Shown here in pieces: positions 10,948 to 62,673 of a stretch of 64,000 nucleotides of DNA. The position numbers were made by a program, and so were the translations under genes. Numbering within the stretch: position 1 is the first letter of the stretch; each line of letters starts with the position of its first letter. Below the pieces are notes generated by a model. The model saw only the letters and a program-made list of their open reading frames with translations. It ran no database searches and was not told the DNA's origin. The stretch covers positions 2,537 to 66,536 of the forward strand of contig DASVDR010000045.1 of NCBI GenBank assembly GCA_036381015.1, given 5' to 3'. This stretch comes from Gammaproteobacteria bacterium (GTDB lineage Bacteria; Pseudomonadota; Gammaproteobacteria; Steroidobacterales; Rariloculaceae).

Positions 10948-10959
10948 GAGGTACGGGGC

Positions 10960-12507: not shown

Positions 12508-12660
12508 TCGACCCTCGCGAATGTTCTGTGTCGGATCCTCGGTCCACGACATCACCAGCTGTTCCGGAGACCGGTACGGAAGGGGTTGGAGCAGAACGGA
12601 ATCGAGGACGCTGAACATCGCGGTATTCGCGCCAATCGCCAACGCCAACGTGGCCGACGC
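12508..12660 (-). pseudogene. N-terminal remnant of an ADOP/MacB-like ABC permease
   Basis: [40 protein letters not shown] matches the TLALGIGANTAIFS...LLRPLPY..P..LV signature, then drifts into unrelated sequence. Confidence 0.7.
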
Positions 12661-13084
12661 CGCGATCGATTGCGCGCAGGCGCTCCAGCGTCCAGGCTGG
12701 TTCGCTTCTGCCGCGGAGCAGACCGACGATGCCGGGCGGCCGAACGTTCACGCGCGGTTCCCGAGCAGCCGCCATTGTGGCCTTCGTGCGACAACCCCGT
12801 GTCTCGACCAGTTGTTGCGGCTACGAGAACGTTGTGGTAATACTACGTCCCGCATGGATTTCCGGCGTGCTAGGGAGAGCGCAGTAGTCGCCGAGGGTCA
12901 GCCGACCGACGGTCGAATCGTGGTCGGCGGCACAGATTCGCTTTTGTCCAAAGCATCCGGTTGGTCGCCGGGGCGTCAATGACCGCGCGGGAATGCGAGC
13001 GCGGTCAGGGGAGGCCCCGGGCGGGAAACGCCGTTGCCGACGCAGCGGAGGCAATCCGCTCGGGCGAATAGACAAGGGGGAGAC

Positions 13085-43631: not shown

Positions 43632-44456
43632 CTACCACGGTGCGATAGTGCCGTCGTGGTTGAAGAAACGGCCGCTGTCCTCGAGGGTTGCCTTCTCGAT
43701 CGTCTCGATCATGCCGCGCACGCTCACATCCGTCTCGATCATGCCGGGATAGCCCTCGAGGTACGATTGGCGCTCGGTCAGCACGGGACCGGGGTTCAGC
43801 ATGACGACGGTGACGCCGTCGTCCTTTTCCTCGCGTGCGACGAGCTGCATCGCGCGGTTCAGCGCGGCCTTGCTCGCCCGGTAGAAGATTGCGCCCGAGC
43901 CCGCGAGAGGCTCGGTCAGCGAGCCGTTCGTGGAGCTGATCGCGACGATCTTGCGCTGCTCGCTCGCCTTCACGTGCTCGATGAACGCCTCCGAGACCAT
44001 CAGCGGCCCTTTGACGTTCACGGCCAGGATCGTGTCCAACAGCGGGAAGTAGAGGTTGCCGAACGTCTGATTGCTCCAGTCGCCGGGGCAGTCCTCGGAA
44101 TCGCAGGCGCTGCGGTCGTTGTATACGCCGGCATTGTTTAGCAGCACGTCGATCGGCACATCGGCGAGCTTCTCGGCGAGCGCGGCGATCTGGTCCGGCT
44201 TCGTGACGTCCAAGCGCTCGACCCGAACGTTGTCGTACTTCGATTGAAGCTCGGCGAGCGTGTCCGGTATCGACGACCGGCGATGCGTGGCGATGACGGT
44301 CCACCCTTTTGCCGCATACTGCTTCGCGAACTCGAGGCCGATGCCGGAATTCGAGCCGGTGATCAGCACCGTCTCAGCGAACGAGCCCGGCGCGCACAGG
44401 ATCGCGCCGGCGGCCAGGACCGACACGGCAAAAGCTTTCGGCATCCTCACGGTCAT
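43632..44456 (-). CDS. SDR oxidoreductase (CsgA/C-factor-like) with signal peptide
   Basis: MTVRMPKAFAVSVLAAGAILCAPGSFA-ETVLITGSNSGIG; NNAG; YRASK; HPG-like NPGPV. Confidence 0.85.
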   Translation of the reverse strand: MTVRMPKAFAVSVLAAGAILCAPGSFAETVLITGSNSGIGLEFAKQYAAKGWTVIATHRRSSIPDTLAELQSKYDNVRVERLDVTKPDQIAALAEKLADVPIDVLLNNAGVYNDRSACDSEDCPGDWSNQTFGNLYFPLLDTILAVNVKGPLMVSEAFIEHVKASEQRKIVAISSTNGSLTEPLAGSGAIFYRASKAALNRAMQLVAREEKDDGVTVVMLNPGPVLTERQSYLEGYPGMIETDVSVRGMIETIEKATLEDSGRFFNHDGTIAPW

Positions 44457-44619
44457 TCGATTTTCTCCCCGGCCTGGTGTGTTTCCGCGAAAGCGAATTC
44501 TAAAGTCTAACCCGAGCGGATTCAGCCCGACGGGTCGCCGTTCGACGCCGGCTCCCGGAGAAGCACGCGCTGGCACGTATCTTGCCGCGAAGCGGCAGGT
44601 CCGAGTCGAAGCTCCGCCC

Positions 44620-45909
44620 ATGCTCGAAACCCTGAGCGGCGCCGTGCCGGTGCCCTATTGGCTACTCGCGCTTCACCTGCTGATCACGCTCGTTCTGATC
44701 GCCGTCGTGTGGTCGCTGAAGCATCGCCGCGACCCGCATTACCGCATCGAGAGCGATGCGCCGATCGCGGAAATGATGCCGTCGATCGTCGGGCTCACGC
44801 ACGGCCAGATCGTTCCCGGCAACGCGGTCGACTTCGTCGAGAACGGCGCTTTCTTCGACGCGCTGCTGCGCGACATCGCGGCCGCAGAGCGGTCGATTCA
44901 CTTCGAGACGTTTTTGTGGAAGGCGGGGGAGATCGAGCGGCGCCTGGTCGAAGCGCTCGCCGCCCGGAGCCGAGCCGGCGTGCGCGTGCGTGTGCTCGTC
45001 GACGCGAACGGCGGCAAGGGCATGAGCGAGGAGGCGGAGCGCGTCCTGCGCACTTCGGGGTGCACTGTGGCGCGATATCACCCCGGCGGGCTGCGCTCGC
45101 TAGGCCGCCTGAACAGCCGCGACCACCGCAAGCTCGCGGTGCTGGATGGGCGGCTCGCGTACGTCGGCGGACACTGCGTCGTCGACAGCTGGCTCGGCGA
45201 TGCCGAGGACGCCGAGCATTTCCGCGACATCTCGGCGCGCCTTCGCGGGCCCGTCGTGCACGCGCTCCAGTCCGCGTTCAGCGAGACCTGGGTGGTGACG
45301 ACCGGCGAGCTTTTCGCCGGCGAGGATGTTTTTCCGACGCTCGAGCCGGAAGGCGACACGCCCGTGCATGTGGCGAGGCTCAGACTGTCGGGTACGGCGT
45401 CGAGCGTGAAGATTCTGCATCATCTCGCGATCTGCTGTGCCCAGGAGCGGATCACGATCCAGAACCCGTACTTCCTTCCGGATTCCGACGGCATCGACCT
45501 GCTCGCCCACGCCGTCCAGCGCGGTGTGCAGGTGCGCGTGATGACGCCGTCGAGCGGCGCGTCCGACTTGGCGATCGTGCAGCACGCCGCCCACTCGAAC
45601 TACGCGAAGCTGCTCTCGGCAGGCGTGCGGCTTTACGAGTACCGGAAGACGCTGCTGCACCAGAAGGTCATGGTCGTCGACGGCCGGTGGTGCGCTTTCG
45701 GCTCGAGCAACTTCGACGACCGCTCCTTCGAGATCAACGAGGAGATCGTGCTCGGCTTCGACGATCCGAGGATCGCCGAGCGGCTCGAGCAGATCTTCGA
45801 GCGCGATGCGAAGGATTGCGTCGAGCTCACGACCGACTCGTGGTCGAGGCGCAGCATCGGCCATCGGCTGCTGGACGGGACGTCGTACCTGCTGAAGGAG
45901 CAGCTATGA
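44620..45909 (+). CDS. cls: Cardiolipin synthase / phospholipase D family
   Basis: N-terminal TM helix; two HKD motifs HRKLAVLD and HQKVMVVD; GSSNFD. Confidence 0.9.
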   Translation: MLETLSGAVPVPYWLLALHLLITLVLIAVVWSLKHRRDPHYRIESDAPIAEMMPSIVGLTHGQIVPGNAVDFVENGAFFDALLRDIAAAERSIHFETFLWKAGEIERRLVEALAARSRAGVRVRVLVDANGGKGMSEEAERVLRTSGCTVARYHPGGLRSLGRLNSRDHRKLAVLDGRLAYVGGHCVVDSWLGDAEDAEHFRDISARLRGPVVHALQSAFSETWVVTTGELFAGEDVFPTLEPEGDTPVHVARLRLSGTASSVKILHHLAICCAQERITIQNPYFLPDSDGIDLLAHAVQRGVQVRVMTPSSGASDLAIVQHAAHSNYAKLLSAGVRLYEYRKTLLHQKVMVVDGRWCAFGSSNFDDRSFEINEEIVLGFDDPRIAERLEQIFERDAKDCVELTTDSWSRRSIGHRLLDGTSYLLKEQL

Positions 45910-45918
45910 CGGCAGCGC

Positions 45919-45943
45919 GGCGGCCGGCCGCTCGCCGGCCGCC
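45919..45943. terminator. GC hairpin between convergent genes
   Basis: GGCGGCCGGC-CGCTC-GCCGGCCGCC, perfect 10-bp stem. Confidence 0.5.
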
Positions 45944-46030
45944 CTAGCTTTGAATCCGTTTCGCTTCGGCCGCCGCCTTGTTCCGTGAACGGAATCGGTG
46001 CGCGGCTTCGGCCGCAAGCTCAGTCGGCTC

Positions 46031-46438
46031 TCAGGAGCGCTCCTCGATCAGCTCGAGGGCCCTTTGCAACAGCTGCGGGTCCGCGTTGACGGCTTGCACG
46101 ACCATGTTGTACTTCTCGGGCGTCCAGCCGCGTTCCGCGATCTTATCGAAGCTTTCTTGCTGCATGCGGACTTGAACGTCCTGCGCTTCCTGTTCCGTCT
46201 CGACGGCGGCAAGCTCCTCTTCGAACTTATTGAGCGTCGCCTCGAGGTCGACGTAGATGTCGGCGAAGGTCTCGAGATCCTCGTCGGACACGGCTGCTCC
46301 CTCCGGGGGTGTGTCCGGCGCCGGCTGCTCGGCCGGCGGTGCCGGCTGCTGCGGCGGCGGCGCCGGTTCCTGGCCGACCGCGATCGAGGTCAGTGCGAGG
46401 GCCGCCCCGGCCGCCAACGGCATCACTAGTCGTCTCAT
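46031..46438 (-). CDS. DUF4168 domain exported protein
   Basis: Signal peptide, Pro/Gln linker, VSDEDLETFA...KYNMVVQAVNADPQL. Confidence 0.78.
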   Translation of the reverse strand: MRRLVMPLAAGAALALTSIAVGQEPAPPPQQPAPPAEQPAPDTPPEGAAVSDEDLETFADIYVDLEATLNKFEEELAAVETEQEAQDVQVRMQQESFDKIAERGWTPEKYNMVVQAVNADPQLLQRALELIEERS

Positions 46439-46512
46439 CGGAACCTCCTGATTTGGAACGAGCAACGGGCTCTGCAAGTCGCGTGCCACGCGCTCGCGGC
46501 GCCCGAGCGCGA

Positions 46513-47910
46513 TCAGGAGCCTTCGGGGCAAATGCCTTCCTCGCCGACCGCGGCCGTCTCCGGAAACGGGGCCCCGCCGCCGGGTCCGGTCAGGCTCACG
46601 CTCGTCGACAACGTGAATCGCGCGTCTCCTTCGCCGAACGCCGCCTCGGCGAACATCGCCTTGTAGCCGCCGATCGGAGCGGCGTCCTCGAAGACGAAGA
46701 CGCCGTCCTCGGCCGGCTCCGCGGGCCGCGACGAAAACCGCTCCTCGCGGAAGTCGGTGTCCTCGGAAGCCGCCGTCCAAACGCTGACGGCGGCGGGAAC
46801 GGGGTCGCCCGTGACGCAGACGCGAAGGCCGTCCGACCCGTTCTCGAACTCCCACTCGAGCCGCGGCAGCGGCTCGTCCGCTTCGCCGTTGCGATGCATC
46901 GCGTCGAGCGCCGGGATCAGCCGCGCGAGATCCTCGATGTCGTGGCCGTCGTTCGGGAGGTAGAGCACCCGTTTAGGCTCCGGCAGGCCGTTCCAGTAGA
47001 GATTCAGCGAGTCGATCGGGAAATAGGCGTCGTTCGTCGCGATGACGACGAGCTTCGGCTGCGTGAGCTGGCGGCGATAGCTGTAGGGGTCGACGATGCG
47101 TCGCAGCGCGCCTCCCTGGTCCGTGCCGAGCACGTCATCGAGCCCTCGGCTCGTATAAGGAGCGATCTCTTGCGACAACGCGCCCCAGATCGCCTCCTGG
47201 TGAGGCAGGTGGGCCTCGAAGTTCAAGACGTCGATGACGATCGGCACGAGCGTCGCCGCGCGCGGCTCGACCGCGCCCGTGAGCCAGGTCGTCCAGCCGC
47301 GCTTCGAGCCGCCCAGCACCGTGAAGCGCTCGATGCCGAGGTTCCACTCGGTCGACGTGAAAGCCTGCACGGCGTCCATCGCGCGAACGGCCGACTTCAC
47401 CATCGGCAGCAACAAGGGCCACTCCGCGTCGCCGGTTTCGAGAAATTCCTGAAACGTGTGCGCGATCAGATCGTCCTCGCGCAATCCGAACATCGGCTGG
47501 AACGGCACCTGGGCGAGAACGGCGACCACCGTGCCGAGCTCCTGGGCAATCCCGATGAAGAGCGGCGCCTCCTCGGGGAGCTCCGCAGCCGTGTTCGTGT
47601 CGTAGCTTTCGCGCCAGCGGCCGCCGCCGATGACGAGCATGCCCTGGCGAATTCCGGGATCGATGTCGTCGGGCCTGATGAGATAGAGCTGGTGCTTCCA
47701 CAACACGTCGCGCCAGGTTTGCGAGTGCAAACGAAGCTCGACGACCTCGGCGCCCGGCGCCTGGTAGCGCGCTTGCACATGCCAGCTGAAGGTCGGGTCG
47801 GGCGCCTCGACGTAATCCCGGAGCGCGGTCTCGGGCGGGCTGTCCGGCTCCGCATGCACGCCGCCGGCGAGTAGACCGAGCAGTGCCAGAGCCGCGGTAT
47901 TTCTGTTCAT
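46513..47910 (-). CDS. pqaA: PhoPQ-activated pathogenicity-related protein PqaA family (exported hydrolase)
   Basis: Signal peptide; SQTWR...WKH, QVPFQP, PMVKSAVRAMD, GGSKRGWTTW, DPYSY, YLPNDGH. Confidence 0.85.
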   Translation of the reverse strand: MNRNTAALALLGLLAGGVHAEPDSPPETALRDYVEAPDPTFSWHVQARYQAPGAEVVELRLHSQTWRDVLWKHQLYLIRPDDIDPGIRQGMLVIGGGRWRESYDTNTAAELPEEAPLFIGIAQELGTVVAVLAQVPFQPMFGLREDDLIAHTFQEFLETGDAEWPLLLPMVKSAVRAMDAVQAFTSTEWNLGIERFTVLGGSKRGWTTWLTGAVEPRAATLVPIVIDVLNFEAHLPHQEAIWGALSQEIAPYTSRGLDDVLGTDQGGALRRIVDPYSYRRQLTQPKLVVIATNDAYFPIDSLNLYWNGLPEPKRVLYLPNDGHDIEDLARLIPALDAMHRNGEADEPLPRLEWEFENGSDGLRVCVTGDPVPAAVSVWTAASEDTDFREERFSSRPAEPAEDGVFVFEDAAPIGGYKAMFAEAAFGEGDARFTLSTSVSLTGPGGGAPFPETAAVGEEGICPEGS

Positions 47911-48116: not shown

Positions 48117-50012
48117 ATGATGAGGCTCGAGGCGAATCGCATGACTCTCCCCGGGAAGAAAATCGTTCTCGCGGCCGCAGCGCTCGCTTTCCTGTGCAGC
48201 GGCGCCGCGTCGGCGCAGCCCGAGTGGCGCTGGTCCCGATCTTCCAAGATCGTCGTGGTTCCGGACATTCACGGCGCGTACTCCGAGCTCGTGGCGCTCC
48301 TCGAAGCGACCGATCTCGTCGACGCGAACCTCGACTGGATCGGCGGCGATGCGACCTTGGTGACGCTCGGCGACCTGGTCGATCGAGGCGCGGGCTCGCG
48401 GAAGGTCCTGGACTTGCTGATGCGCTTGCAACGCCGCGCGGCGGAGCAAGGCGGCGCGGTGCACGTCCTGCTCGGGAACCACGAGCTCATGAATCTGACC
48501 GGAGATTTGCGCTACGTCTCGCAAGCCGATTATGCCGCGTTTACGGATGAAGAGTCGCCGGCTTTGCGTGCGTCGGCCTACGAGCGCTTCCTCGCCGACC
48601 GCCGCGCGGCGGGCGGCTCCGAAGCCGACGCGAGAGCCGCTTTCGAGCGTCTTTACCCGCCGGGCTTTTTTGCACGCGAGCGCGCCTTTCGGGCCGACGG
48701 CAGGTACGGGACGTGGCTGCTGACGCTGCCCGCGCTGATCGTCGTCAACGACACGGCGTTCGTTCACGGCGGGCTGCCCGAGATCGTGGCGAGCACCGGA
48801 GCGGCGGCGCTGAATCAGCAGATCGGCGACGACCTTCGCCGCTACCTGCGTCTGCGGGCCCGCCTCGTGGAAGCGGGAGTCTTACCCGCATTCGATCCCA
48901 GGCAGGACCTGGAGCTCGCGCGTGCGGCACGCGGGAACCTGCCGCCGGCGCCCGAAGCCCCGGCGCCCGATGTCCCCGCGTTCGACGCCGCGCCGCCCGA
49001 CGCGGAGCTTGCGAATCTGCTCGACGCGTTCCTCGCCCTCGCGGAGGCGCCGGAGCTCGGCGTCGACGGTCCGCTTTGGTACCGAGGCTCCGTGTACTGC
49101 AATCCGTTTCTGGAAGAGCCCGTGCTCGCGGCGGCGCTCGATCGGCTGGAAGCGGCGCGCGTCGTGGTCGGCCATACGCCGACGGAGGATCGCCGGCCGC
49201 GGGAGCTGTACGACGGCCGGCTCATCATGCTCGATACGGGGATGTTGACCGCTTACTACGCGGGCCGCCCCGCCGCGCTCGTCATTGACGGCGAGCGGAC
49301 GCTCGTGCAGGAGCTTGGAGCCGAGGAGCCGGTGCCGCTCGAGCGCGGGAGGCTCGAGGCGGACGGCCTCACGGAAGCGCAGGTGCTCGAAACGCTCTCG
49401 CAGGGAGCGGTGAAGGCCCTCGAGGACGGGGCGAGGTTTCGTGCGACCACCCGGGTGCAGGTGCTCCACAACGGCAAGAGCATCGAGGCCCTCTTTTATC
49501 CGCGGGGACGTGCGGCGGACCGCGAGCTTGCGGCCTATCGTCTCGACCGCCTGCTCAGTGTGAATCTCGTGCCGCCCACGGTCGAGCGTGAGGTCGAGGG
49601 GGAGCGCGGCGCCTTGCAGCTCGTGTATCGAGACGCGATCACCGAGTCCGAACGGATCGAGCAACGAACGCCGCTCGGCGGATGGTGCCCCATCGAGCCC
49701 CAAGCCGAGCTCATGCGGGTGTTCGACCTGTTGACCGCCAATACGGGGCGGACGGGAGACAACATCCTCTACCGTCGCGAATCTTCGGTGCTGAAGCTCG
49801 TCGACCACGCGGAGGCCTTCGGGGCCGCCGGCCGGCTGCGCCTGCGGCGAGGCTCGGTCGAGCTGACGCCGGCGCTTCGCGCTGCTCTCGCATCGCTCGA
49901 TCGAAATACGCTCGAATCGGCAATCGGGCAGTGGATCGACGCCGACGAGATCGAAGCCTTGCTCGAGCGGCGCGATGCGCTGCTCGAGCAAGCGGCGTCG
50001 TCCACCCGTTGA
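48117..50012 (+). CDS. Exported PPP-type metallophosphoesterase (Shewanella-like phosphatase) fused to a degenerate atypical kinase-like domain
   Basis: Signal peptide ending GAASA-Q; DIHG, GDLVDRG, GNHE, FVHGG, GHTP; C-terminal RELAAYRLDRLL..NLVPPTVER...FDLLTANTGR...NIL...LVDHAEAF. Start may be 48141. Confidence 0.85.
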   Translation: MMRLEANRMTLPGKKIVLAAAALAFLCSGAASAQPEWRWSRSSKIVVVPDIHGAYSELVALLEATDLVDANLDWIGGDATLVTLGDLVDRGAGSRKVLDLLMRLQRRAAEQGGAVHVLLGNHELMNLTGDLRYVSQADYAAFTDEESPALRASAYERFLADRRAAGGSEADARAAFERLYPPGFFARERAFRADGRYGTWLLTLPALIVVNDTAFVHGGLPEIVASTGAAALNQQIGDDLRRYLRLRARLVEAGVLPAFDPRQDLELARAARGNLPPAPEAPAPDVPAFDAAPPDAELANLLDAFLALAEAPELGVDGPLWYRGSVYCNPFLEEPVLAAALDRLEAARVVVGHTPTEDRRPRELYDGRLIMLDTGMLTAYYAGRPAALVIDGERTLVQELGAEEPVPLERGRLEADGLTEAQVLETLSQGAVKALEDGARFRATTRVQVLHNGKSIEALFYPRGRAADRELAAYRLDRLLSVNLVPPTVEREVEGERGALQLVYRDAITESERIEQRTPLGGWCPIEPQAELMRVFDLLTANTGRTGDNILYRRESSVLKLVDHAEAFGAAGRLRLRRGSVELTPALRAALASLDRNTLESAIGQWIDADEIEALLERRDALLEQAASSTR

Positions 50013-50118
50013 CCTTCAGCCGTGTCTGCCGGGCGCCGGGACCGCCTCGACGACGCAAGGGCGTCGTCCTTCGCGACACCCGTGCAGAGGGAGCGGATCC
50101 AAGCGCCGCAGCACCGTT

Positions 50119-52632
50119 TCAACGCGATGCATCCGGTGCCGATAGGCGCCGGCACGCGCGCACGATCTCCTCTCCCTCGGATGACCCGATCGCGCTGAAG
50201 AACTCGTCGAGATACGCCTGCGCCTTTTCGCGGGCGCGATCTTCGAGCCCGGGAATCTCGTCGACGAGCTCGGAGACCGCGGTTTGTCGGGTTAGAAAGC
50301 GCTCGAAGAGCGGCTGCCACTGGAGGTCCGAATGGCAGAAACCTCGATACAAGCGCTCCGTGACCGAACGGATCGGCAGCTTCGGCGACGGCCCGGCGTA
50401 GGAAGCGTCGACGAGGCCCGAGAAGTCGAAGTCGTACGGTACGGCCGTCACGAGCCCGTCGGCGTCGACGAAGCCGGCGACGTTGTGACCCGCGATCGCG
50501 GACCAGTCCGTGTTCCCGATCAGGTATTGAAACAGCTCGAAGGTGGCCAGCTCACGAGCATCGGTCTCGCCTGGATCGAGCTCGCCCTCCGGCTGCAACG
50601 TCGCGTGCAGCCGCTTCGCAAGAGAATCGAAGTGCTCGGTAAAGAAGGCGTAACGCTGAACCTCGCGGCTGCGTCGCCGCCCCTCGTCCCGATAGGTGAT
50701 TCGAGCGAGCCGAACCCGCAGGCTCTTGTCGGTCAGCAGGTTGTAGATTCGATACGCGAGGTACTCTTTCAGCACGTACTGCTCATAGGCAGCGCTCTCG
50801 CGGCAGTGAGTCGTCAGCGGCAGCATCGTTTGGCCTTCGAACGGCGTGCCTTCAGCCCCGGCGGCAAAGAACACGAACAGCGGCGGCACGGCGCAATTGC
50901 CGGACTCGTTCCGCCAAACGCCGCGCACGCGCAGACGAACGTCGACGCGCCGCTCCGCACCGTGCCCGTCGCTGACGACGAGCGTAGCCGGCGCGTCCGC
51001 GCAGTCCGACCGCGTCGTGCGGCGGCACAGCGCCTTCGAGGTCATCACGAGCTCCAGCGCGAGAGGTTCGCTTTCGGCGAACAGCGCGTCGCGCTCGAGG
51101 GGCTGCGAGTCGGCGATCAGCGGCTCGGTAGCCGCCGCCTCCGTGATCGTCGACTGGGCGGACGCGTCCTCGGGCGTCGAGAGCGTAACGACGGCCAGCG
51201 CGACAGCGGTCGCGCCGACTGCCGCCCATCGCCGAACGATAGCGGCCGCCCGCGGCGCGGCCCGGCGGCCGGGGTAGCGTTTGCCGATTTGCACGGTCAC
51301 GACGATCCAGACCAATGCGAGGAGCATGTTCACTGCGGCAAATTCGCGAAAACCGAAGCCGAGCCAATTGAGCCCCGCGTAAATCCAGCCGGCCTGCACG
51401 AGGTCGCCCAGGCGCCAGAAGAAGGTGTCGACCGCGGTCTTGCCCTCGTATTGATGCCTGGCCGGCAACGGCAAAAAGAGAGCGTGCCGAGCCGTGTTCA
51501 TGATCGAGTATTCGGTGCTGTTTTCGACAATCTTAACCGCGCGAATGATGCCGAAGATAGGCAGGAAAGCGGCCAGGCCGTAACCGATGAAGGCGACGAT
51601 CGGCAGGATCAGAATTGCTCCCTGAACTCCGATCCAGCGAAAGATCCGCGCTACCAAGCACATTTGCAGCAGCAGGCCGAGCGCGTTGACGGCCATGTAA
51701 TAGTTGCCGTAGAAGGACGCGATCAGATCGCCCTTGTCGAGTCCCGGATCGGCGGCGATCCGTTGATCGGCGTCGCGAATCACGAGCTCGGTCAATATGT
51801 ATTCGCCGGTCGTGTTCACGCAGTTGAGCAGCACGGCGAGCAGCGCGAGCAGCAGCAAGTAGCGATTGCCGAGCACGAGCGTGAATCCGTCGAGCAGGTG
51901 AGCAGAGCCACGACCGGCGGCCGACGGCGCTTGCTCCCGCCTGCCGGACTGCGGAGGCACCGCGTTCGCGCTGCGCTCGACGAGCGGCAGCGTGATCGCG
52001 AGCAGAACGACCGCGACCAGCATCAGGTTCCACGGGCCGAGCCACGGAAAGAGCACGCCGCTCAGCCGCGGTCCGACGAGCGCGCCGACCGCGGCGCCGG
52101 CCATGATCAGGGGAAAAAGGCGTTGGCCGGCCTCGAGGTTGAACGCATGAGCGGCGTGCGCCCAGAGTTGGGCGAGAATGGTGACGCCGAATACCCCGAC
52201 CCACACGTAGTAGGCGAAGCTCACGTCGACGCCGCTGCGACCGAGCAGATAGAAGAGGCCGAGATTGGCCATGAAGAACAGGGTGATCCAGCGGACGAGC
52301 AAGCGCGGTGCGGTGCGCTTGGCCAATCCGCTGTACAACGGCACGCCCACGAGCAAGACGGCCGCGATCGCACCGCAAGCGTAGCTCTTGAGCGCCGCCG
52401 AGCCGCCCGCGAGAAGCAGCGGCTCCCTGATCGTCTTCAAGACGTAGTAGCAGACGAGCAGCAGCAACGCGTAGGCCGCGAAGAGCGCCGCGCTTTTCCC
52501 CTCTCCCGGCCGGACGGTCGTGAACAGACCGAAAACCCGTTCGGAAAGCGAGCGCTTCGAAGCACGCCGAGCGGCGGCCGCGTCGGTTTCCGCCGCCAAG
52601 GATTCGAAGCCGGTCGTCGTCGCTGCGTTCAT
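50119..52632 (-). CDS. NTT/TLC (Npt1/Npt2-like ATP/ADP translocase) family transporter fused to a C-terminal CotH-like kinase-fold domain
   Basis: N-terminal about 12 TM with YYVLKTIREPL, YYVWVG, FNLEAGQRLFP, ENSTEYSIMNTARHALFLP, YEGKTAVDTFFWRLGD. Then an extra hydrophobic helix and RG..R...C..PPL, THC, KEYLAYRIYN, GNTDWS...HN, PYDFDFSG. Confidence 0.85.
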   Translation of the reverse strand: MNAATTTGFESLAAETDAAAARRASKRSLSERVFGLFTTVRPGEGKSAALFAAYALLLLVCYYVLKTIREPLLLAGGSAALKSYACGAIAAVLLVGVPLYSGLAKRTAPRLLVRWITLFFMANLGLFYLLGRSGVDVSFAYYVWVGVFGVTILAQLWAHAAHAFNLEAGQRLFPLIMAGAAVGALVGPRLSGVLFPWLGPWNLMLVAVVLLAITLPLVERSANAVPPQSGRREQAPSAAGRGSAHLLDGFTLVLGNRYLLLLALLAVLLNCVNTTGEYILTELVIRDADQRIAADPGLDKGDLIASFYGNYYMAVNALGLLLQMCLVARIFRWIGVQGAILILPIVAFIGYGLAAFLPIFGIIRAVKIVENSTEYSIMNTARHALFLPLPARHQYEGKTAVDTFFWRLGDLVQAGWIYAGLNWLGFGFREFAAVNMLLALVWIVVTVQIGKRYPGRRAAPRAAAIVRRWAAVGATAVALAVVTLSTPEDASAQSTITEAAATEPLIADSQPLERDALFAESEPLALELVMTSKALCRRTTRSDCADAPATLVVSDGHGAERRVDVRLRVRGVWRNESGNCAVPPLFVFFAAGAEGTPFEGQTMLPLTTHCRESAAYEQYVLKEYLAYRIYNLLTDKSLRVRLARITYRDEGRRRSREVQRYAFFTEHFDSLAKRLHATLQPEGELDPGETDARELATFELFQYLIGNTDWSAIAGHNVAGFVDADGLVTAVPYDFDFSGLVDASYAGPSPKLPIRSVTERLYRGFCHSDLQWQPLFERFLTRQTAVSELVDEIPGLEDRAREKAQAYLDEFFSAIGSSEGEEIVRACRRLSAPDASR

Positions 52633-52898
52633 CGTCTCATCCCCAAAGCGCCTTCGTGCTTCGCCGCTGCTCGCCCCGTATCTCGCTCGGACCGGCGCGC
52701 CATGGGTAAGAGAGTGCGCGCAAACGCTCTTAAGAGACTGATGCAAGAAGAATTGTTTTCATCGCGAAATCCGCGCAAACGTTCGGAGTTCTGCGGATTC
52801 CGGAAGGCGAGGGTGTGTTGCCGGCGCGTCGGCGCGCCGCTAACATCGTTCTCGGCTTCCCACCACGCGCCCGCGCGTAGGGGTCAACGGCAACTCCC

Positions 52899-54518
52899 AT
52901 GGACCAGCGACTGCGACGCGGCTTCCGCATCGGCGCATTCGACGTCGAGCCGCTCTCCGGACGCATCAGCGGCCCCGGCGGCGGCCAGCACGTCCAACCG
53001 AAGGTCATGGACGTGCTCGTCTATCTCGCCGAGCACGCGGGCGAGCTCGTCGAGCGGGACACGCTGCTCGAGCAAGTGTGGCGCCGGATCACCTCGGAGG
53101 AGGTCTTGACGCGCTGCATCAGCGAGCTGCGGCGGGCCTTGGGCGACGACCGGGGCAGCCCCCGCTACATTCAGACGGTGCCGAAACGCGGATACCGGCT
53201 CGTCGAGCCGATCGTGCTCGACCACGAGGAGAGCGAACGTACGCCGCAGGCCGCCGCGGATGGCGGTGCCGCCGCGACGGCCCCGCTGAACCCGCCTTCG
53301 CCCTCCAGCGCCATGGCCGCGATCGCCGTGCTGCCGTTCGAGAATCACTCTGCGGATCCGGCCGTCTCGTTCATCGGGGACGCGTTCGCGGCCGAGCTCC
53401 ACAGCACGCTCGCACGCGTCGACCGCCTGCGGGTCGCGTCCCGCCGCTCGTCGTTCGTCTTCAAGGATGCGAGCGTCGACATTCGCGAGATCGGCAGGAG
53501 ATTGAATGTCGACTACGTCATCTCGGGCAGCGTGCAATCCAGCAGCGGGTCCGTGCACGTCGTCGCCGAGCTCAACGACGCATCGGGCGGCACCCAGATC
53601 TGGGCGCAAAGCTACGACCGCAAGAGCGAGGATCTGCTCGCGATCGAAAGGGACGTCGCGGGGGCAATCGTCGGCTCGTTCACGACACATCGACTGCGGG
53701 CCGAGACCAATAGCGCGAGACACCGACCCACGAGCAGTCTCGATGCTTGGGGCCTCGTGCAAAAGGCGCGCGCTTTCGCGTTCGAGTACACGCCGAGCGG
53801 CCTGGCGGACGCGATCGAGCCGGTGCGCCGCGCGATCGAGCTCGACAAGGACTATCCGGCCGCGCACGCCATGTTGGCCTCGCTGCTCGTGGAGCGGCTC
53901 GTGAACGGCTGGAGCACGGAGCCGAAGCGCGACGAGTCGGCTGCGCTCGAAGCGGCGGAGAAGGCGGCGACGCTGGCGCCGCAGGACCCGTTCATCCAGA
54001 AGATGGCGAGCCTGGTATGGACCTATTTCGGCGACTACCGCAGGGCCATCGGCTGCCTGCGAAAGGCGGTCGAGTACGCCCCGTTCGATTTTGGCGCGTG
54101 GGGCTACATGGGCTGGCCGCTGACGGCCTCGGGGGAGGAAAAGGACTTGAGCGATCTGCACGGCATACTCGATCGCTTGTTGAGCATGGAGCCGCACCAC
54201 CCGGGGGTTGCGTTCTGGCGTTATCACGAGTCGGTCGCCGCCGTTTGCGAAGGCAAACTCGAAGACGCGCGGGCGTCGGCGGAAGCGGCGCTCGAGCTGC
54301 GGCCGAACCTATCGCTCGCCTGCATGCACCATGCGAACGTGCTCGGCCGGTTGAATCTCAAGAAGGCGGCTCAGGACGCGTTGGAGCGCTGTCGCAAGAT
54401 CAATCCCGCGATGACGCCGAAGCACTTCGAGTCACTGATCGAGCGCATGACCGACAACGAGAGCGTGATCGAGCACAGGCTGGGAGGCCTTCGCAAGATC
54501 GGTGCCTTGCGCGGCTGA
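52899..54518 (+). CDS. OmpR/CadC-type winged-helix regulator with TolB-like/TPR sensory region
   Basis: VQPKVMDVLVYL...LLEQVW...LTRCISELRRAL..YIQTVPKRGYRL; IAVLPFEN; TPR repeats; no TM. Confidence 0.9.
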   Translation: MDQRLRRGFRIGAFDVEPLSGRISGPGGGQHVQPKVMDVLVYLAEHAGELVERDTLLEQVWRRITSEEVLTRCISELRRALGDDRGSPRYIQTVPKRGYRLVEPIVLDHEESERTPQAAADGGAAATAPLNPPSPSSAMAAIAVLPFENHSADPAVSFIGDAFAAELHSTLARVDRLRVASRRSSFVFKDASVDIREIGRRLNVDYVISGSVQSSSGSVHVVAELNDASGGTQIWAQSYDRKSEDLLAIERDVAGAIVGSFTTHRLRAETNSARHRPTSSLDAWGLVQKARAFAFEYTPSGLADAIEPVRRAIELDKDYPAAHAMLASLLVERLVNGWSTEPKRDESAALEAAEKAATLAPQDPFIQKMASLVWTYFGDYRRAIGCLRKAVEYAPFDFGAWGYMGWPLTASGEEKDLSDLHGILDRLLSMEPHHPGVAFWRYHESVAAVCEGKLEDARASAEAALELRPNLSLACMHHANVLGRLNLKKAAQDALERCRKINPAMTPKHFESLIERMTDNESVIEHRLGGLRKIGALRG

Positions 54519-55044: not shown

Positions 55045-55165
55045 GCGCGTTCCTCCGCGTCCATCGGACGAGCGCGTCGATTCGCCGGCGAGAGGGGCTT
55101 CCGAGAGGCTCGGGCCTGATAAGATGGACGCAAGCGTCATCGAACAGAGGGACGGAGCGAGAACT

Positions 55166-56404
55166 ATGAACAGATCAGCTGCGAGGAGCCCGTCGGTCAA
55201 CGCTCTTATTTGCTGCTGCTCGATATTCGGATTGGTCGGGTACACCGCCGCCGCAATTGCCGAAGATCCGTGGCCCTGGAGCGGTGACGTCAGCGATGAC
55301 GCCGTGACACTTCTGCTGCTCGGAGACTTCAACGTGCAGCAAAGAGAGCACCCGGCCGACGCGCTCCAACTCGTGCGGCAAACCCTCAACGAAGCCGATC
55401 TCGTGTATGCCAACCTCGAAGGCCTGCTCGTGGAATCGAAGGGTCCCGCCTGGGATCTCCCGAACAAGAACGGATGGACGCATCTCGGGCCGGAAGCCGT
55501 GGAGGCGCTCGTCGCCGGCAATATCTCCGTGGTCGGCGTCGCCAACAACGTCGCCTACGGGCGCGACAACATCATGGCCAGCCTGTCCGTGCTGGATGCG
55601 CACGGAATCGCGCACACCGGAGCGGGGAAGGACATCGATGCAGCTCACGAACCGGCCATCGTCGAGAAGAACGGCGTGACGTTCGGCTTCCTGCAATACA
55701 CGTCGAAGTGGTACGACGAGGCAGAGCAGATCGCGACGGAAGACGCGGCGGGCGTTGCGCGGCTGAAGTCTCCGGACGGCACCACGATCGACCCGGGTGA
55801 TCTGGATCGGCTGCTGGACGACATACGGCGTACGAGACCGAAGGTGGACGTCCTCGTCGTGTCTGCCCACACGCGTGACGGCCAGGGAAGAGACGGTGCA
55901 TCGCGCGATAACCGCACGCGAAACGCGGCGACCGCGGCCGGCGCGGCGAGCGCCACAACGGCGACAAGCGCGGCCACCGACGATCTGTATTCGCGCCTCC
56001 CCGTCAACGAGAACCTGCAGTACTTCGAGCCCTACCAAAGACGCCTCGCCCAGGCCGCGATCGATGCCGGGGCCGATATCGTCTTCGGTCACGGTTGCCA
56101 CTCGCTGCAGGCCGTCGAGACCTACGCCGGTAAGCCCGTCATGTATTGCCTCGGCAATTTCGCTTCCGACTGGATACGCGTCAGAGATTATCGTGACGGG
56201 CTGGTCGCAAGGGTCGTCATCGAGGACAAGCGAGTGAAGCGTGTCTCGCTGGTGCCCGTCACGCGGGACGCCGAGACCAACAATGTATGGCTCGTGCCGC
56301 CCGACTCGCCCGAGGGCGAAAGGCTTTATGGCAAGCTCCGGGAGCTATCGGGCTCCACCGATCTGAAGCTGGACGGGCAGGAGCTGGTTCTGCTCGAGCA
56401 GTGA
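55166..56404 (+). CDS. CapA (poly-gamma-glutamate synthesis/metallophosphatase-fold) family exported protein
   Basis: LGDFN, ANLEG, VANN, AHTGAG, IDAGADIVFGH, YCLGNF. Confidence 0.82.
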   Translation: MNRSAARSPSVNALICCCSIFGLVGYTAAAIAEDPWPWSGDVSDDAVTLLLLGDFNVQQREHPADALQLVRQTLNEADLVYANLEGLLVESKGPAWDLPNKNGWTHLGPEAVEALVAGNISVVGVANNVAYGRDNIMASLSVLDAHGIAHTGAGKDIDAAHEPAIVEKNGVTFGFLQYTSKWYDEAEQIATEDAAGVARLKSPDGTTIDPGDLDRLLDDIRRTRPKVDVLVVSAHTRDGQGRDGASRDNRTRNAATAAGAASATTATSAATDDLYSRLPVNENLQYFEPYQRRLAQAAIDAGADIVFGHGCHSLQAVETYAGKPVMYCLGNFASDWIRVRDYRDGLVARVVIEDKRVKRVSLVPVTRDAETNNVWLVPPDSPEGERLYGKLRELSGSTDLKLDGQELVLLEQ

Positions 56405-56459
56405 ACGGGAGCGGAGCGCCGCGCCGAGGTCGATCCTCGAGCGAGCGCTCGCGGCGCAG

Positions 56460-57299
56460 CTACTCCCCGGCAGCCGCCTTCTGCGCCGCGAGCATCGCTT
56501 CGAAGCGCCTTTGCTGCGCGTCGATGTGGGCGAGATAGCCCGCGCGATCGATGAACGGATTCGGATCGCCGGGCTTTCGACTCTTCAGGGCGGCATATTT
56601 CTCGTCGAGCCCGTAGAAGGTGCCGTGCGAGCCGAGAAACACGTCGACGGGCAAAGCGCGCGCCTTGGCGAACGTGGCGACGTAATCGGAAGCGATCTCG
56701 GGATAGTCCTCGTTGCCGACCAGCACGTAGTTGTCGTTGACCCCGAAGCTGCAGACGATCAGCGCATGGTAAGTCCTGCCGTCTTCCTCCAAGTCGAGGC
56801 CCCAGCTCGTGCAGCCCTTCGTATGGCCCGGCGTCCGATAGGCCGTCAGCGTCGTTCCGCCGAGCGTGACCTCGTCGCCGTCGTGAAGCACGCGGTCAAT
56901 CGGATGCTCCTTCCCTCCGGGCCGCATCGCGCGGAGCGCGGGGACGTCTTCGGCCATGGCCATGACCGTCGCGCCGGTCAGGGACTTCACCAGCGCGTCA
57001 CCCTGCATATGGTCGCCGTGAGCATGGCTGCCGAGCAGGATCTCGATATCGCCGAACTCGAAGCCGAGCTGCTCGACATTCTCGCGCAGCACCGGAACGC
57101 TGCTCTCGAAATCGCTGTTGATGAGAATGTGACCATCGGGCGTCGTGATCAGAAACGAGGCGAGCTGCGCCGTGCCGACGTAGTAGAGATTGTCCATGAC
57201 ACGATGAGGAGGGAACGGCGCGTTCCAATTTACTCGGGGTTGAGCGCTCGCGACGACGGCCGTCAACGACGACGCTACGAGAAATGCGGCTCTTTTCAT
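56460..57299 (-). CDS. Subclass B3 metallo-beta-lactamase-like protein
   Basis: Signal peptide; W..PFPPHRVMDNLYYVGT; SHAHGDH; TPGHTKGC; LGSH. The six zinc ligands are recognisable. Confidence 0.88.
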   Translation of the reverse strand: MKRAAFLVASSLTAVVASAQPRVNWNAPFPPHRVMDNLYYVGTAQLASFLITTPDGHILINSDFESSVPVLRENVEQLGFEFGDIEILLGSHAHGDHMQGDALVKSLTGATVMAMAEDVPALRAMRPGGKEHPIDRVLHDGDEVTLGGTTLTAYRTPGHTKGCTSWGLDLEEDGRTYHALIVCSFGVNDNYVLVGNEDYPEIASDYVATFAKARALPVDVFLGSHGTFYGLDEKYAALKSRKPGDPNPFIDRAGYLAHIDAQQRRFEAMLAAQKAAAGE

Positions 57300-57326
57300 G
57301 ATCGTTCGTTCTTTTTTAAGTTCGCG

Positions 57327-57498
57327 GGTGTCCCGCAAATACCTCTACATGACACTTGCCGGGAACGCCGTGGATACGTCCCTGTAGGCTCGCTCGCGCG
57401 CGTCCATGCCCGGGGTCCCCGGCGCGAACACAGTGAGCGCTGGGGTGGCGTGGGCGAGCGTCCCGTCAAGCGTCATGTAGAGGTATTTGTGCGACACC
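57327..57498. mobile_element. 172-bp MITE/REP-like element with about 40-bp imperfect terminal inverted repeats
   Basis: CAAATACCTCTACATGAC (57336-57353) is the exact reverse complement of 57472-57489; the match extends imperfectly outward to GGTGTC/GACACC and inward to CTTG.CGGGA. Confidence 0.55.
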
Positions 57499-57578: not shown

Positions 57579-58328
57579 TCACGGAGCGGACCCGGAGTCC
57601 GGCAGGCTGCGTAGCAGAATCCGTGCTTGCGCCATGCAGCCTCGCGTCGCAAGCCAGGCGACCGTGGTGAGTCCCTTGTCGGCGAGCCCCGGAGGCAGCG
57701 TGTGCACCCGGATCGCCGTCGAGCGAAGCTCGTCGCCGAACCTGACGAGATAGATGCGATTGTCGCCGGGCAAGGTTCCGAGCGGCCAGTCCGCCTGTTG
57801 CCGATCGCTCCAGTCGAGCTCGGCCGATTCTCCGCTCGCGACGTCGAGCAATGTCGAGCGGCCACCCCGATCGAGGTGTTCGCGCCAAAGGCCCACGGGA
57901 CGGCCGGCGAGGACGCACTGCTCGGATGCGAGCTCGGCGTGAATCAGCCACGGGTCGGGGCGCGTATCGGCAGGCTGCGAAGTCTCGTCTTCGCCGCCGC
58001 GAACGCCTCCGAGCCCTTCGACCTCCGGGCGCTCCATCCCGAACAGCTGCCCGAGCAGCCTGCGCAACCGGCTTTCGGGCGCAGGTCTTCCCGTCGCGGG
58101 TCCGTCGTGCGGACCTTCGACGACCAGCGTGCGGCCGTCCTCCGCAGCGAGCACGACGGTCTCGTCCCGGCCGAGCGTCAACGGTGCCTCGGTGTCCAAA
58201 GTTTGCCCGACGGTGAATCGGCTCGTGTTCGACTCCAAGACGACGCTCTCGGCGGCCTGCGACGATGGGAACGCGAGCGACGCCAGAGCTCCGAATGCAG
58301 CTGCGGCTGCGACATCTTCGATGCGCAT
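57579..58328 (-). CDS. Exported hypothetical protein coupled to the CHASE2 cyclase
   Basis: GGAGG RBS; start overlaps the cyclase stop; signal peptide ending SSQA-AE; C-terminal AWLATRGC. Confidence 0.75.
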   Translation of the reverse strand: MRIEDVAAAAAFGALASLAFPSSQAAESVVLESNTSRFTVGQTLDTEAPLTLGRDETVVLAAEDGRTLVVEGPHDGPATGRPAPESRLRRLLGQLFGMERPEVEGLGGVRGGEDETSQPADTRPDPWLIHAELASEQCVLAGRPVGLWREHLDRGGRSTLLDVASGESAELDWSDRQQADWPLGTLPGDNRIYLVRFGDELRSTAIRVHTLPPGLADKGLTTVAWLATRGCMAQARILLRSLPDSGSAP

Positions 58329-60262: not shown

Positions 60263-60383
60263 GGTTGCTCCCGATTGTCCCAGGGGTGAGATAATTATCG
60301 GGGCAATCGCAGTGTATGGTAGAGTCGGAAAAAAGGGCAAGACGGTGTGCAACGCGGTTGGAGCCGGGATCGTGCCTGTCGTC

Positions 60384-62567: not shown

Positions 62568-62673
62568 CGTGAGCACGCGGTCGGCATCGACGAGAGCTGC
62601 GGCCGTCGTCGGCGGGTATCGGCTCGCACCTGCAGCGGCAGCCGCCGGCGTGCCCGTCGACGCACGCTCGGGC

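Follow-up and report, generated by a model that had tools for sequence, protein, structure and literature searches.

How an exported kinase-fold protein of a Gram-negative bacterium could obtain a phosphoryl donor is the question raised by a locus of an uncultured gammaproteobacterium, in which a nucleotide-transporter-like membrane protein is fused to a predicted outward-facing kinase-fold domain and is kept together with a predicted exported phosphatase. The periplasm is held to lack ATP, and known periplasmic phosphorylations use lipid-linked donors; therefore, the donor used by such exported proteins has been unclear. The locus lies in a window of 64,000 nucleotides (GCA_036381015.1, contig DASVDR010000045.1, positions 2,537 to 66,536), which is the whole stretch of DNA analysed and to which all coordinates below refer. 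A sequence-only reading had described two convergent genes with atypical kinase-fold domains predicted outside the cytoplasm, one fused to an exported PPP phosphatase and the other to an NTT/TLC transporter, with a wHTH-TPR regulator divergent from the transporter. It had proposed that the transporter delivers ATP to the periplasm for a write/erase phosphorylation cycle, or that the kinase folds act as periplasmic nucleotide sensors or scavengers. The comparative data presented here suggest, but do not prove, a phosphorylation system working outside the cytoplasm with its own nucleotide supply.

Gene content of the locus

The three open reading frames are real, and the observation made from the sequence is confirmed. 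The genes A and B are convergent, with 106 bp between their stops, whereas B and C are divergent, with a 266-bp gap. The features are as follows.

48117..50012 (+), gene A (631 aa), exported Shelph-type PPP phosphatase fused to a PI4K-II-like pseudokinase domain
48117..48218 (+), predicted Sec signal peptide (residues 1-34, ...AASA/QPEW)
48243..49376 (+), PPP metallophosphatase domain (residues ~43-420)
49434..49994 (+), PI3/PI4-kinase-like fold domain (residues ~440-626)
50119..52632 (-), gene B (837 aa), NTT/TLC-like transporter, 13th helix and CotH-like kinase-fold domain
51283..52545 (-), NTT/TLC-like 12-helix transporter core (residues ~30-450)
51172..51243 (-), extra 13th transmembrane helix (residues 464-487)
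50134..51099 (-), CotH-fold kinase-like domain (residues ~512-833)
52633..52898, divergent intergenic region with sequence blocks conserved across orthologous loci (+ strand 52711-52719, 52731-52742, 52752-52760, 52836-52848)
52899..54518 (+), gene C (539 aa), CadC/OmpR-type winged-helix regulator with TolB_N-like and TPR regions

For gene B, a TTG at 52746 is an alternative start, but this longer version was not adopted because homologues align from the ATG at 52632. The conserved blocks of the divergent region were obtained from an alignment of eight loci, and a search of this region against Rfam returned no hit. Additionally, consensus scans found no sigma-70 promoter or intrinsic terminator in either intergenic region.

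The phosphatase and its degenerate kinase-like domain

The N-terminus of gene A (KK, a hydrophobic run, then ASA/Q) looks like a signal peptide, a prediction based only on hydropathy and the AxA motif. The phosphatase domain matched Pfam Metallophos with E 6e-12, and its best solved relatives were the Shewanella cold-active protein-tyrosine phosphatase structures 1v73/2z72 (E 5e-26). The PPP motifs (GDxHG, GDxxDRG, GNHE and the downstream His motifs HGG and GHT) were all invariant in 56 homologues, comprising D50 H52 G53, G85 D86 D89 R90 G91, G120 N121 H122 E123, H217 G219 and G352 H353 T354, and more than 1284 homologues share the same two-domain build. The C-terminal ~200 aa hit TIGR03843 (SCO1664, PI3/4-kinase-like) with E 6e-12 but far below the family cut-off (45 bits against 172). 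However, the AF2 model of this domain (pLDDT 94.2) had PI4K type II (beta/alpha) as its top structural match, with E 2e-8 and TM 0.6, which indicates a kinase fold. The pseudokinase reading of this domain holds, since the position of the PI4K catalytic Asp (Gly544 here, with the loop register set against the PI4KII-alpha motif) is Gly, Ala or Ser in 52 of 56 homologues (G42, A6, S4), and the DFG-like Asp (Asp563) is kept in only 29 of 56.

These results bear on an alternative in which the locus serves nucleotide or organophosphate salvage. In this view, the transporter would import rather than export, the outward-facing kinase-fold domain would capture or convert an external nucleotide or nucleoside for uptake, the exported metallophosphatase, whose bacterial PPP relatives include the Ap4A hydrolase ApaH, would process external nucleotides, and the pseudokinase domain would be a nucleotide-binding module. 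It is favoured by the fact that characterised NTTs import nucleotides (PMC5381601), by weak hits of the phosphatase to ApaH-type models and by the possibility that the degenerate PI4K-like domain still binds nucleotide. However, the phosphatase is closer to the protein-tyrosine/Shelph enzymes (E 5e-26) than to ApaH (E 3e-4), the CotH-like domain keeps phosphotransfer-type Asp motifs that simple binding would not need, the same kinase/phosphatase pair occurs widely with no transporter at all, and a kinase would still need a donor outside the cytoplasm. This alternative is considered unlikely.

The transporter and the CotH-like domain

The similarity of the gene B core to NTTs is distant. The protein itself scored below the curated cut-offs, with 18.8 bits against 21 for Pfam TLC (PF03219, E 8e-4) and 22.4 against 387 for TIGR00769, although 43/43 family members hit TLC at E<=0.01 (best 7e-10). 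On the other hand, a family profile hit only NTTs in the PDB, namely 9j3n (E 1.4e-11) and 9j3j (E 8e-8), across helices ~4-12 and including the GK.A.D signature region, which supports homology of the 12-helix core, also indicated by hydropathy, to solved NTTs. Nothing in the sequence gives substrate or direction, nucleotide counter-exchange was not assayed, and the substrate-binding residues were not compared, since a literature search for the paper on the 9j3n structure found nothing.

The C-terminal domain was also below the Pfam CotH (PF08757) gathering score (E 5e-3 for the protein; 20.8 bits against 23.8 for the domain alone), only 1 of 58 homologues hit that family at E<=0.01, and a sequence profile of the CotH-like family found no relative among PDB sequences. 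However, whether this domain and that of gene A are kinase folds had been set in advance as a point on which the proposal could fail, and the structural models did not count against it: the model of the gene B domain (pLDDT 90.6) had B. cereus CotH 5jd9/5jda as top hits, with E 4e-10, probability 1.0 and TM 0.56. The IGNTDW, GHN and YDFDFSG motifs are invariant, and D215, N223, D240 and D242 did not vary in 58 homologues. D215 and D240/D242 lie 25-27 residues apart, against 23 for the B. subtilis CotH residues D228 and D251, which are required for activity (PMC7821199); in the absence of a residue-level superposition, this similar spacing leaves undecided whether they are the same two catalytic residues.

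A cytoplasmic location of the two proteins would likewise have contradicted the sequence-only reading, and the predictions place both outside the cytoplasm. The 12-helix core of gene B is followed by the extra helix, which is preceded by a 14-residue loop with 5 K/R on the inner side and followed by an AxA motif (ASA/QS), and which corresponds to the signal peptide of stand-alone homologues. Of these, 76 of 90 have N-terminal signal-like segments, and six Cys are conserved in the family. Localisation was not measured.

Close NTT relatives carry other C-terminal extracytoplasmic domains such as He_PIG, showing that the C-terminus accepts varied periplasmic modules. This could suggest a sensor-transporter, in which the CotH-fold domain is a ligand-binding regulatory domain that gates the transporter and the phosphatase gene is only a frequent neighbour. 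However, in the He_PIG case a separate CotH-like gene and the phosphatase still follow directly, the catalytic-type residues are invariant and the CotH-like/phosphatase pairing is independent of the transporter, making this reading very doubtful.

Gene C matched Trans_reg_C with E 1e-17, together with TPR repeats and a weak TolB_N-like match. In contrast with the CadC/ToxR-like membrane regulators, in which the wHTH is followed by a TM helix and a periplasmic sensor, no hydrophobic helix was predicted, and the product is a soluble wHTH-TolB_N-like-TPR protein. The regulator was found divergent from the transporter in seven loci (L001, L002, L004, L005, L007, L008 and L009), but this linkage is limited to the fusion clade, and more distant members use an ECF sigma factor instead.

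Genomic linkage and the conserved core

Absence of co-occurrence in other genomes had been named as the remaining ground for rejecting the module, and it was not observed. Among 61 related genomes, all 24 with the CotH-like domain also have the phosphatase (24/0/5/32, p 2e-12), whereas the association of the NTT clade with the phosphatase was weaker (14/2/15/30, p 2e-4). As the genomes are related, these Fisher p-values overstate independence. In 16 of the 24 genomes, the kinase-like and phosphatase genes lie within 2.6 kb, in at least 4 arrangements. A split version was also identified at one locus (L108), where the transporter is followed after 15 nt by a CotH-like gene and then by the convergent phosphatase, which is the unfused form of the layout found in the window, and at another (L010) the transporter and phosphatase form an operon, overlapping by 4 nt.

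A chance neighbourhood, in which the convergent phosphatase gene has no functional tie to the transporter-kinase gene, should also be considered, since in an unbiased sample of 7 close homologues only 1 had the phosphatase within 8 kb, and the nearest relative (L007, 75% identity) has none downstream. However, the phyletic association, the repeated adjacency in different orders and orientations, the 4-nt overlapping operon and the split Rosetta-stone locus already largely refute this possibility, which is very improbable.

These comparisons also changed the view of what is conserved. The conserved core is not the transporter plus phosphatase but a stand-alone exported CotH-like protein plus the PPP phosphatase, spread over several phyla and usually accompanied by a DUF4956 membrane protein. 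The NTT-like transporter is a lineage-specific membrane partner, and its fusion to the kinase is confined to a narrow clade. No DUF4956 (PF16316) match was found in the window's genome or in the other five fusion genomes, whereas relatives with stand-alone CotH-like genes mostly have one adjacent, as in the genomes G022, G044, G051, G054, G058 and G059. The idea that DUF4956 and the NTT clade are strictly exclusive was rejected, because G044 and G054 hold both.

The DUF4956 association raises another possibility, that the kinase-like domain uses a non-nucleotide donor (polyphosphate or pyrophosphate) or acts on a glycan or lipid, as suspected for the CotH/VTC/DUF4956 sets, in which case the NTT-like protein would carry something other than ATP, such as the donor, a counter-ion or the product. 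In Gram-positives, DUF4956 accompanies a polyphosphate-polymerase-like gene and a secreted CotH at pel polysaccharide loci (10.1101/768473; PMC12345266), and the NTT family carries varied substrates. However, VTC/polyphosphate polymerase genes were sought in the proteobacterial clusters examined and none was found: the gene between c12 (a gene of these clusters without Pfam match) and DUF4956 is an SdiA-regulated/YjiK-type propeller. In addition, the only solved relatives of the transporter are ATP/ADP carriers. This possibility appears unlikely, though slightly less so than salvage.

Interpretation

The interpretation offered by the sequence-only reading is partly supported: both C-terminal domains are kinase folds, both proteins are predicted to lie outside the cytoplasm and the genes are functionally linked, whereas the composition of the conserved core, the lineage-specific role of the transporter and the restricted linkage of the regulator required revision. 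The best explanation, to which a probability of about 0.45 is assigned, is that the three genes form one variant of a widespread, uncharacterised phosphorylation module that works outside the cytoplasm. The analysis itself supports that a CotH-fold kinase-like domain with conserved catalytic-type Asp motifs is tethered by a 13th helix to an NTT/TLC-type transporter, that an exported PPP phosphatase with intact catalytic motifs and a degenerate PI4K-like domain is its conserved genomic partner, and that a wHTH-TPR regulator is conserved divergently from the transporter within the fusion clade. The mechanism, in contrast, is inferred, including ATP export, kinase activity, the write/erase cycle and the target, as no activity, substrate or transport direction has been measured. 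In this model, the transporter would run as a nucleotide exchanger, as characterised NTTs do, exporting ATP or another NTP from the ATP-rich cytoplasm in exchange for periplasmic NDP/Pi and feeding the kinase domain held at its exit, which may be released by signal peptidase at the retained AxA site. The kinase would phosphorylate an unidentified envelope target, either protein or glycan, and the phosphatase would remove the mark, its pseudokinase domain serving as a nucleotide-, substrate- or kinase-binding module. In lineages without the transporter, a DUF4956 membrane protein would fill the membrane-partner slot.

A bolder and unlikely, though not excluded, version is that an inner-membrane NTT-type exchanger exports ATP into the periplasm to power the tethered kinase, which would be the first dedicated nucleotide supply line for phosphorylation outside the cytoplasm in bacteria. 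The fusion would then act as a Rosetta stone, implying that the interchangeable membrane partner of exported CotH-type kinases in other phyla (DUF4956, with or without VTC) also delivers the phosphoryl donor. The locus provides a concrete hypothesis that can be tested in E. coli, namely that the donor is a nucleotide handed over by the transporter. If true, it would establish ATP-driven write/erase phosphorylation in the bacterial envelope and would suggest a role for DUF4956 and for thousands of unannotated CotH-like proteins (more than 4400 homologues, none with a Pfam hit, although 1 of the 58 members mentioned above reached E<=0.01). Literature searches found no paper on NTT-CotH fusions, on periplasmic CotH with nucleotide transporters or on Shelph-pseudokinase fusions.

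Comparison with known systems

As an analogy only, which was not tested here, the eukaryotic secretory pathway pairs a lumenal ATP/ADP exchanger with Fam20-type kinases, following the same logic of an atypical kinase in an ATP-poor compartment supplied by an adenine-nucleotide exchanger, although the transporter family is unrelated and the proteins are separate. The NTT/TLC nucleotide transporters (TC 2.A.12; PDB 9j3n, 9j3j) share a homologous 12-helix core, and their C-terminus is a known site for domain fusions, such as NTT-HEAT and NTT-HEAT-cNBD (PMC5381601). However, the known fusions are cytoplasmic (HEAT, cNBD, methyltransferase), while here a 13th helix is predicted to put a kinase fold outside, and the relationship is distant, with an unknown substrate. 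The Shewanella cold-active protein-tyrosine phosphatase and Shelph PPP phosphatases (PDB 1v73, 2z72; PMC535813) are the closest solved relatives of the gene A N-terminal domain, which differs in carrying an extra C-terminal PI4K-II-like domain lacking the catalytic Asp, not described for Shelphs.

The Bacillus CotH spore-coat Ser/Thr kinase is the best structural match of the transporter's C-terminal domain, and both act, by prediction in the present case, outside the cytoplasmic membrane; the invariant Asp motifs of the window protein are spaced similarly to the essential pair of CotH, although their equivalence is undecided. Nevertheless, identity is about 12%, and the window protein belongs to a Gram-negative, non-sporulating bacterium, has six conserved Cys, is fused to a transporter and has no known substrates. 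Finally, the secreted CotH, polyphosphate-polymerase-like (VTC) and DUF4956 accessory genes at Gram-positive pel loci (10.1101/768473; PMC12345266) also tie an exported CotH-type protein genomically to a membrane protein, a slot in which relatives of this locus use DUF4956, and the function is unknown in both. The locus is therefore a variant of an already noticed but uncharacterised CotH/DUF4956 gene set rather than a wholly separate system, but it has no VTC, no DUF4956 and no pel locus, its membrane partner is a covalently fused NTT-like transporter and its constant partner is a PPP phosphatase-pseudokinase, and it is the first of these envelope modules to point to a nucleotide as donor.

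Gene content of the locus

The region has a G+C content of 65-69% and contains many spurious ORFs, but three long ORFs were found to have homologues and domain matches:

48117-50012, plus strand, 631 aa: gene A, a signal-peptide-like segment followed by a metallophosphatase domain and a C-terminal domain of about 200 residues with a predicted PI3/PI4-kinase-like fold.
50119-52632, minus strand, 837 aa from the ATG: gene B, a distant relative of the NTT transporters, followed by a 13th predicted helix and a C-terminal domain with a predicted CotH-like fold.
52899-54518, plus strand, 539 aa: gene C, a winged-helix regulator with TPR repeats.

Genes A and B are convergent, with 106 bp between their stops, whereas B and C are divergent and 266 bp apart. 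The sequence-only reading had described two convergent genes, an exported phosphatase and a nucleotide-exchange transporter, each fused to an atypical kinase-fold domain predicted to lie outside the cytoplasm, with a wHTH-TPR regulator divergent from the transporter, and this observation was confirmed as written.

Gene A starts with a segment resembling a signal peptide (KK-IVLAAAALAFL-CSGAASA/QPEW, the slash marking the AxA site). The best solved relatives of its metallophosphatase domain are the Shewanella cold-active protein-tyrosine phosphatase entries 1v73/2z72/2zbm (E 5e-26), with ApaH and the eukaryotic PP1/PP2A following far behind. In an alignment of 56 homologues (46-77% identity), every PPP signature was found to be invariant, namely D50-x-H52-G53, G85-D86-x-x-D89-R90-G91, G120-N121-H122-E123, H217-x-G219 and G352-H353-T354, and the phosphatase therefore looks active. 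Additionally, exactly two Cys are invariant across these 56 homologues, C328 in the phosphatase domain and C524 in the pseudokinase domain; an interdomain disulfide is possible and would fit a periplasmic location. Gene B gave only weak single-sequence hits, to TLC (E 8e-4) and CotH (E 5e-3), while gene C presents an OmpR/CadC-type winged helix (E 1e-17), a weak TolB_N-like stretch and TPR repeats, with no hydrophobic helix predicted.

The intergenic region between the regulator and the transporter holds short sequence blocks at 52711-52719, 52731-52742, 52752-52760 and 52836-52848 (on the transporter strand: GAAAACAAT, ATCAGTCnCTTA, GCACACT, GATGTTAGCGGCG), which are conserved in 8 orthologous loci whose proteins are only 57-75% identical. 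Searches of this region returned no Rfam hit and no sigma-70 consensus hit, and the blocks may correspond to an operator, a promoter or a leader. The flanking genes (44260-47910 and 55124-57338) look unrelated to the module, comprising a PLD-type two-HKD protein, an exported PhoPQ-activated pathogenicity-related hydrolase (E 2e-103), a PGA_cap/CapA-like protein and a metallo-beta-lactamase-fold protein. On the other hand, a TPR-CHAT protease, often with a CHASE2 cyclase and a TpsB partner, recurs within a few kb of the transporter/phosphatase genes in 5 of about 15 distinct loci (57579-63999 in the window, and 695-4915, 724-6620, 10488-13919 and 2664-6029 in the compared loci L009, L010, L011 and L003, respectively). 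In L011, the exported CHAT gene follows the phosphatase and then the CotH-like gene on the same strand, and this protein could be a target or simply a co-regulated neighbour.

Predicted folds of the two C-terminal domains

The absence of a kinase fold in these domains had been set out in advance as a result that would overturn the sequence-only reading, and structure prediction supported such a fold for both. In the case of gene B, residues 495-837 were aligned with 57 stand-alone homologues, and the AlphaFold2 model reached a mean pLDDT of 90.6 and a pTM of 0.89. Against the PDB, the top hits of this model were the B. cereus CotH kinase entries 5jd9/5jda (E 4e-10, probability 1.0, TM 0.56), followed by H. 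pylori CtkA and VPS34. The invariant residues include G212-x-T214-D215 (IGNTDW), N223 (GHN) and D240-x-D242 (YDFDFSG). CotH requires D228 and D251, which lie 23 residues apart (PMC7821199), whereas the spacing observed here is 25-27; since the residues were not superposed, this is consistent with, rather than proof of, an equivalent catalytic pair, and the correspondence is left undecided. By sequence, however, the family is not Pfam CotH, since only the window's own domain hits that model, below its cut-off, and none of the other 57 do, and a profile search found no PDB sequence. More than 4446 homologues exist, of which the best 120 listed have no CotH or other kinase-family Pfam hit and are named in their sources 'hypothetical protein' or not at all. 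Seven of 58 CotH-like homologues in the alignment hit Pfam DUF2790 (best E 1e-5), and that Pfam family may be a fragment of this larger kinase-fold family.

In the case of gene A, the last ~200 residues hit the SCO1664 family model TIGR03843 (PI3/PI4-kinase-like) at E 6e-12, although with a score of 45 bits against a cut-off of 172. The model of residues 425-631 (pLDDT 94.2) matched PI4K type II beta/alpha at E 2e-8 and a TM of about 0.6, with CtkA, PRPK and PI3Ks following. The catalytic loop reads N542-T-G544-R545-T-G-D548-N549, while that of PI4K-II-alpha reads N-T-D-R-G-N-D-N. The catalytic Asp position is occupied by Gly in 42, Ala in 6 and Ser in 4 of 56 homologues, and the DFG-like Asp563 is kept in only 29 of 56, although E470, R491, E510, D537, R545 and F568 are invariant. 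Therefore, 'pseudokinase', as proposed in the sequence-only reading, is a fair description of this domain, even though nucleotide binding cannot be excluded.

The transporter and the predicted location of the fused domain

A profile of 43 family members hit exactly two distinct PDB sequences, both of them NTTs: 9j3n, 'ADP,ATP carrier protein 1' (E 1.4e-11), and the chloroplast carrier 9j3j (E 8e-8). The match runs from about helix 4 to helix 12 and includes the ...K.GK.A.D... region. All 43 members hit Pfam TLC at E<=0.01, and 28 also hit MFS_1. These findings indicate a distant NTT relative, for which neither the substrate nor the direction of transport is known, and nucleotide salvage by import is among the rival readings, although an unlikely one. 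A second, distant NTT-like gene (28% identity, with one in-frame TGA in the match) is present in the same genome, outside the window (contig C8, 187788-189128), and equivalents of unknown function occur in nearly all of the 61 genomes of the order, including those of 1.2 Mb.

A cytoplasmic location of the kinase-fold domains would also have counted against the sequence-only reading, and the predictions pointed instead to the outside. Hydropathy, together with the NTT alignment, gives a 12-helix core ending near residue 449, which is followed by a 14-residue loop with five K/R and then by a 13th helix at 464-487. Since NTT termini are cytoplasmic, the CotH-like domain should face the periplasm. 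Independent support comes from the stand-alone homologues, which begin with signal-peptide-like segments in 76 of 90 cases by a crude hydropathy test, with visible AxA sites, and the family also keeps six conserved Cys. Helix 13 plus 'EDASA/QS' corresponds to that signal peptide, and the AxA motif (51157-51171, residues 488-492, just after helix 13) is kept in the consensus of the fusion family. It is inferred from this that signal peptidase might cleave the protein and release the kinase-like domain from the transporter.

Genomic linkage of the transporter, kinase-like and phosphatase genes

Whether the genes co-occur in other genomes was the main condition on which the sequence-only reading had been staked. 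Full-length fusions form a family of more than 100 clusters at 90% identity, all from gammaproteobacterial MAGs, which fall into only about four clusters at 50% identity. The fused tips form one clade (support 0.89), with three stand-alone forms nested inside it. In seven loci chosen only for the extent of their assembled sequence, the wHTH-TPR regulator lay divergent from the transporter in all five with 57-75% identity, whereas an ECF sigma/anti-sigma pair replaced it in the two at 47-48% identity. The phosphatase was near in only one of these seven (L001). Three further loci were chosen because both proteins shared a contig: in two of them (L008 and L009) the phosphatase lies on the far side of the regulator, while in the third (L010) a transporter without the CotH domain overlaps the phosphatase gene by 4 nt, which is an operon. 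Called ORFs of 46-49 aa, whose relationship to one another was not checked, end 10-50 nt before the transporter start in loci that use an ECF sigma factor or lack the wHTH regulator (L003 7838-7987, L006 7805-7951 and L010 9843-9983).

A search of 61 genomes of the same order demonstrated that the CotH-like domain occurs as a stand-alone ORF of ~350-450 aa in many relatives. All 24 genomes with a CotH-like domain have a gene A homologue, whereas only 5 of the 37 without it do (Fisher p 2e-12, not corrected for relatedness). In 16 of the 24, the two genes lie within 2.6 kb of each other; they are adjacent on the same strand in genomes G006, G011, G014, G024, G031, G036 and G058, and convergent in G046, G051 and G059. 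The close NTT clade is associated with gene A as well (14/2/15/30, p 2e-4), and the two lie within 10 kb in 6 of the 14 genomes that have both. Chance adjacency is therefore largely excluded.

A split form was also identified. In L108 (8001-13002), a locus from a Xanthomonadales MAG, a close NTT relative is fused to a He_PIG Ig-like domain instead of CotH, and this gene is followed after 15 nt by a separate 342-aa CotH-like gene (42% identity, E 5e-85) and then, in convergent orientation, by the phosphatase-pseudokinase (48% identity). This is the unfused form of the window's layout. Other close NTT relatives of 600-1439 aa in the representative library carry further C-terminal extensions, which were not examined, and a sensor domain gating the transporter, another rival reading, is considered improbable.

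Distribution of the wider family

A scan of species-representative genomes found at least 593 CotH-like loci, from Gammaproteobacteria (Woeseiaceae, Xanthomonadales/Lysobacterales, Wenzhouxiangella and Dokdonella), Gemmatimonadota, Bacteroidota, Acidobacteriota and Alphaproteobacteria. When these loci were mapped with HMMs built for this analysis, two recurrent layouts were observed. In the Woeseiaceae type, the phosphatase-pseudokinase is divergent from the CotH-like gene, which is followed by an unknown ~320-aa protein, an SdiA-regulated/YjiK-type propeller and DUF4956. The ~320-aa family, found in such clusters (L104 8995-11518, L021 9240-10877, L022 and L019), is unannotated and has no Pfam hit; it starts ...LVHGHDFKP and has an SHCLGS motif that looks like an alpha/beta-hydrolase nucleophile elbow. 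The Xanthomonadales and alphaproteobacterial type consists of DUF4956, CotH-like and a PPP phosphatase without the pseudokinase domain.

Additionally, many Gemmatimonadota loci pair CotH-like with DUF4956 only, and the NTT-like transporter appears only in the window's lineage. DUF4956 is absent from all six fusion genomes, while it is adjacent in most relatives with stand-alone CotH-like genes. However, the genomes G044 and G054 have both DUF4956 and the NTT clade, indicating that the exclusion is not strict. The membrane-partner slot seems interchangeable between DUF4956 and NTT, which is taken as a hint that the job of the partner is to supply the donor.

Interpretation and relation to known systems

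The domain folds, as modelled, the conserved residues and the genomic linkage rest directly on the analysis, whereas a working module outside the cytoplasm is an inference from them. In this view, the NTT-like protein, acting as a reversible exchanger in a free-living cell with high cytoplasmic ATP, would export NTP against NDP/Pi; the tethered or released CotH-like domain would phosphorylate an envelope target; and the phosphatase would reverse this, its pseudokinase domain binding nucleotide, substrate or the kinase. The whole chain is given a probability of about 0.45. Of its parts, the linkage is very likely and the location outside the cytoplasm likely, but the nucleotide export is only tentative, and the biochemistry is untested. 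The proposal of the sequence-only reading, in which the transporter delivers ATP to the periplasm for a write/erase phosphorylation cycle, is supported only in part: the module is real and predicted to be exported, but its core is the CotH-like/PPP pair and the transporter is a lineage-specific partner.

A secreted CotH, a polyphosphate-polymerase-like protein and DUF4956 have been noted as accessory genes at Gram-positive pel loci, where mutants affect Pel-dependent aggregation and the function is unknown (10.1101/768473; PMC12345266). A non-nucleotide donor or a glycan target is a further rival reading, although a doubtful one. The survey of NTT fusions lists HEAT, cNBD, SAM-methyltransferase and 2OG-oxygenase fusions, and none with CotH (PMC5381601), and literature searches found no paper on an NTT-kinase fusion or a Shelph-pseudokinase fusion. 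The module described here belongs with the uncharacterised CotH/DUF4956 envelope modules, from which it differs in having an NTT-like transporter, fused to the CotH-like domain, as its membrane partner, and its value is that this fusion names a candidate donor-supply mechanism that can be tested directly.
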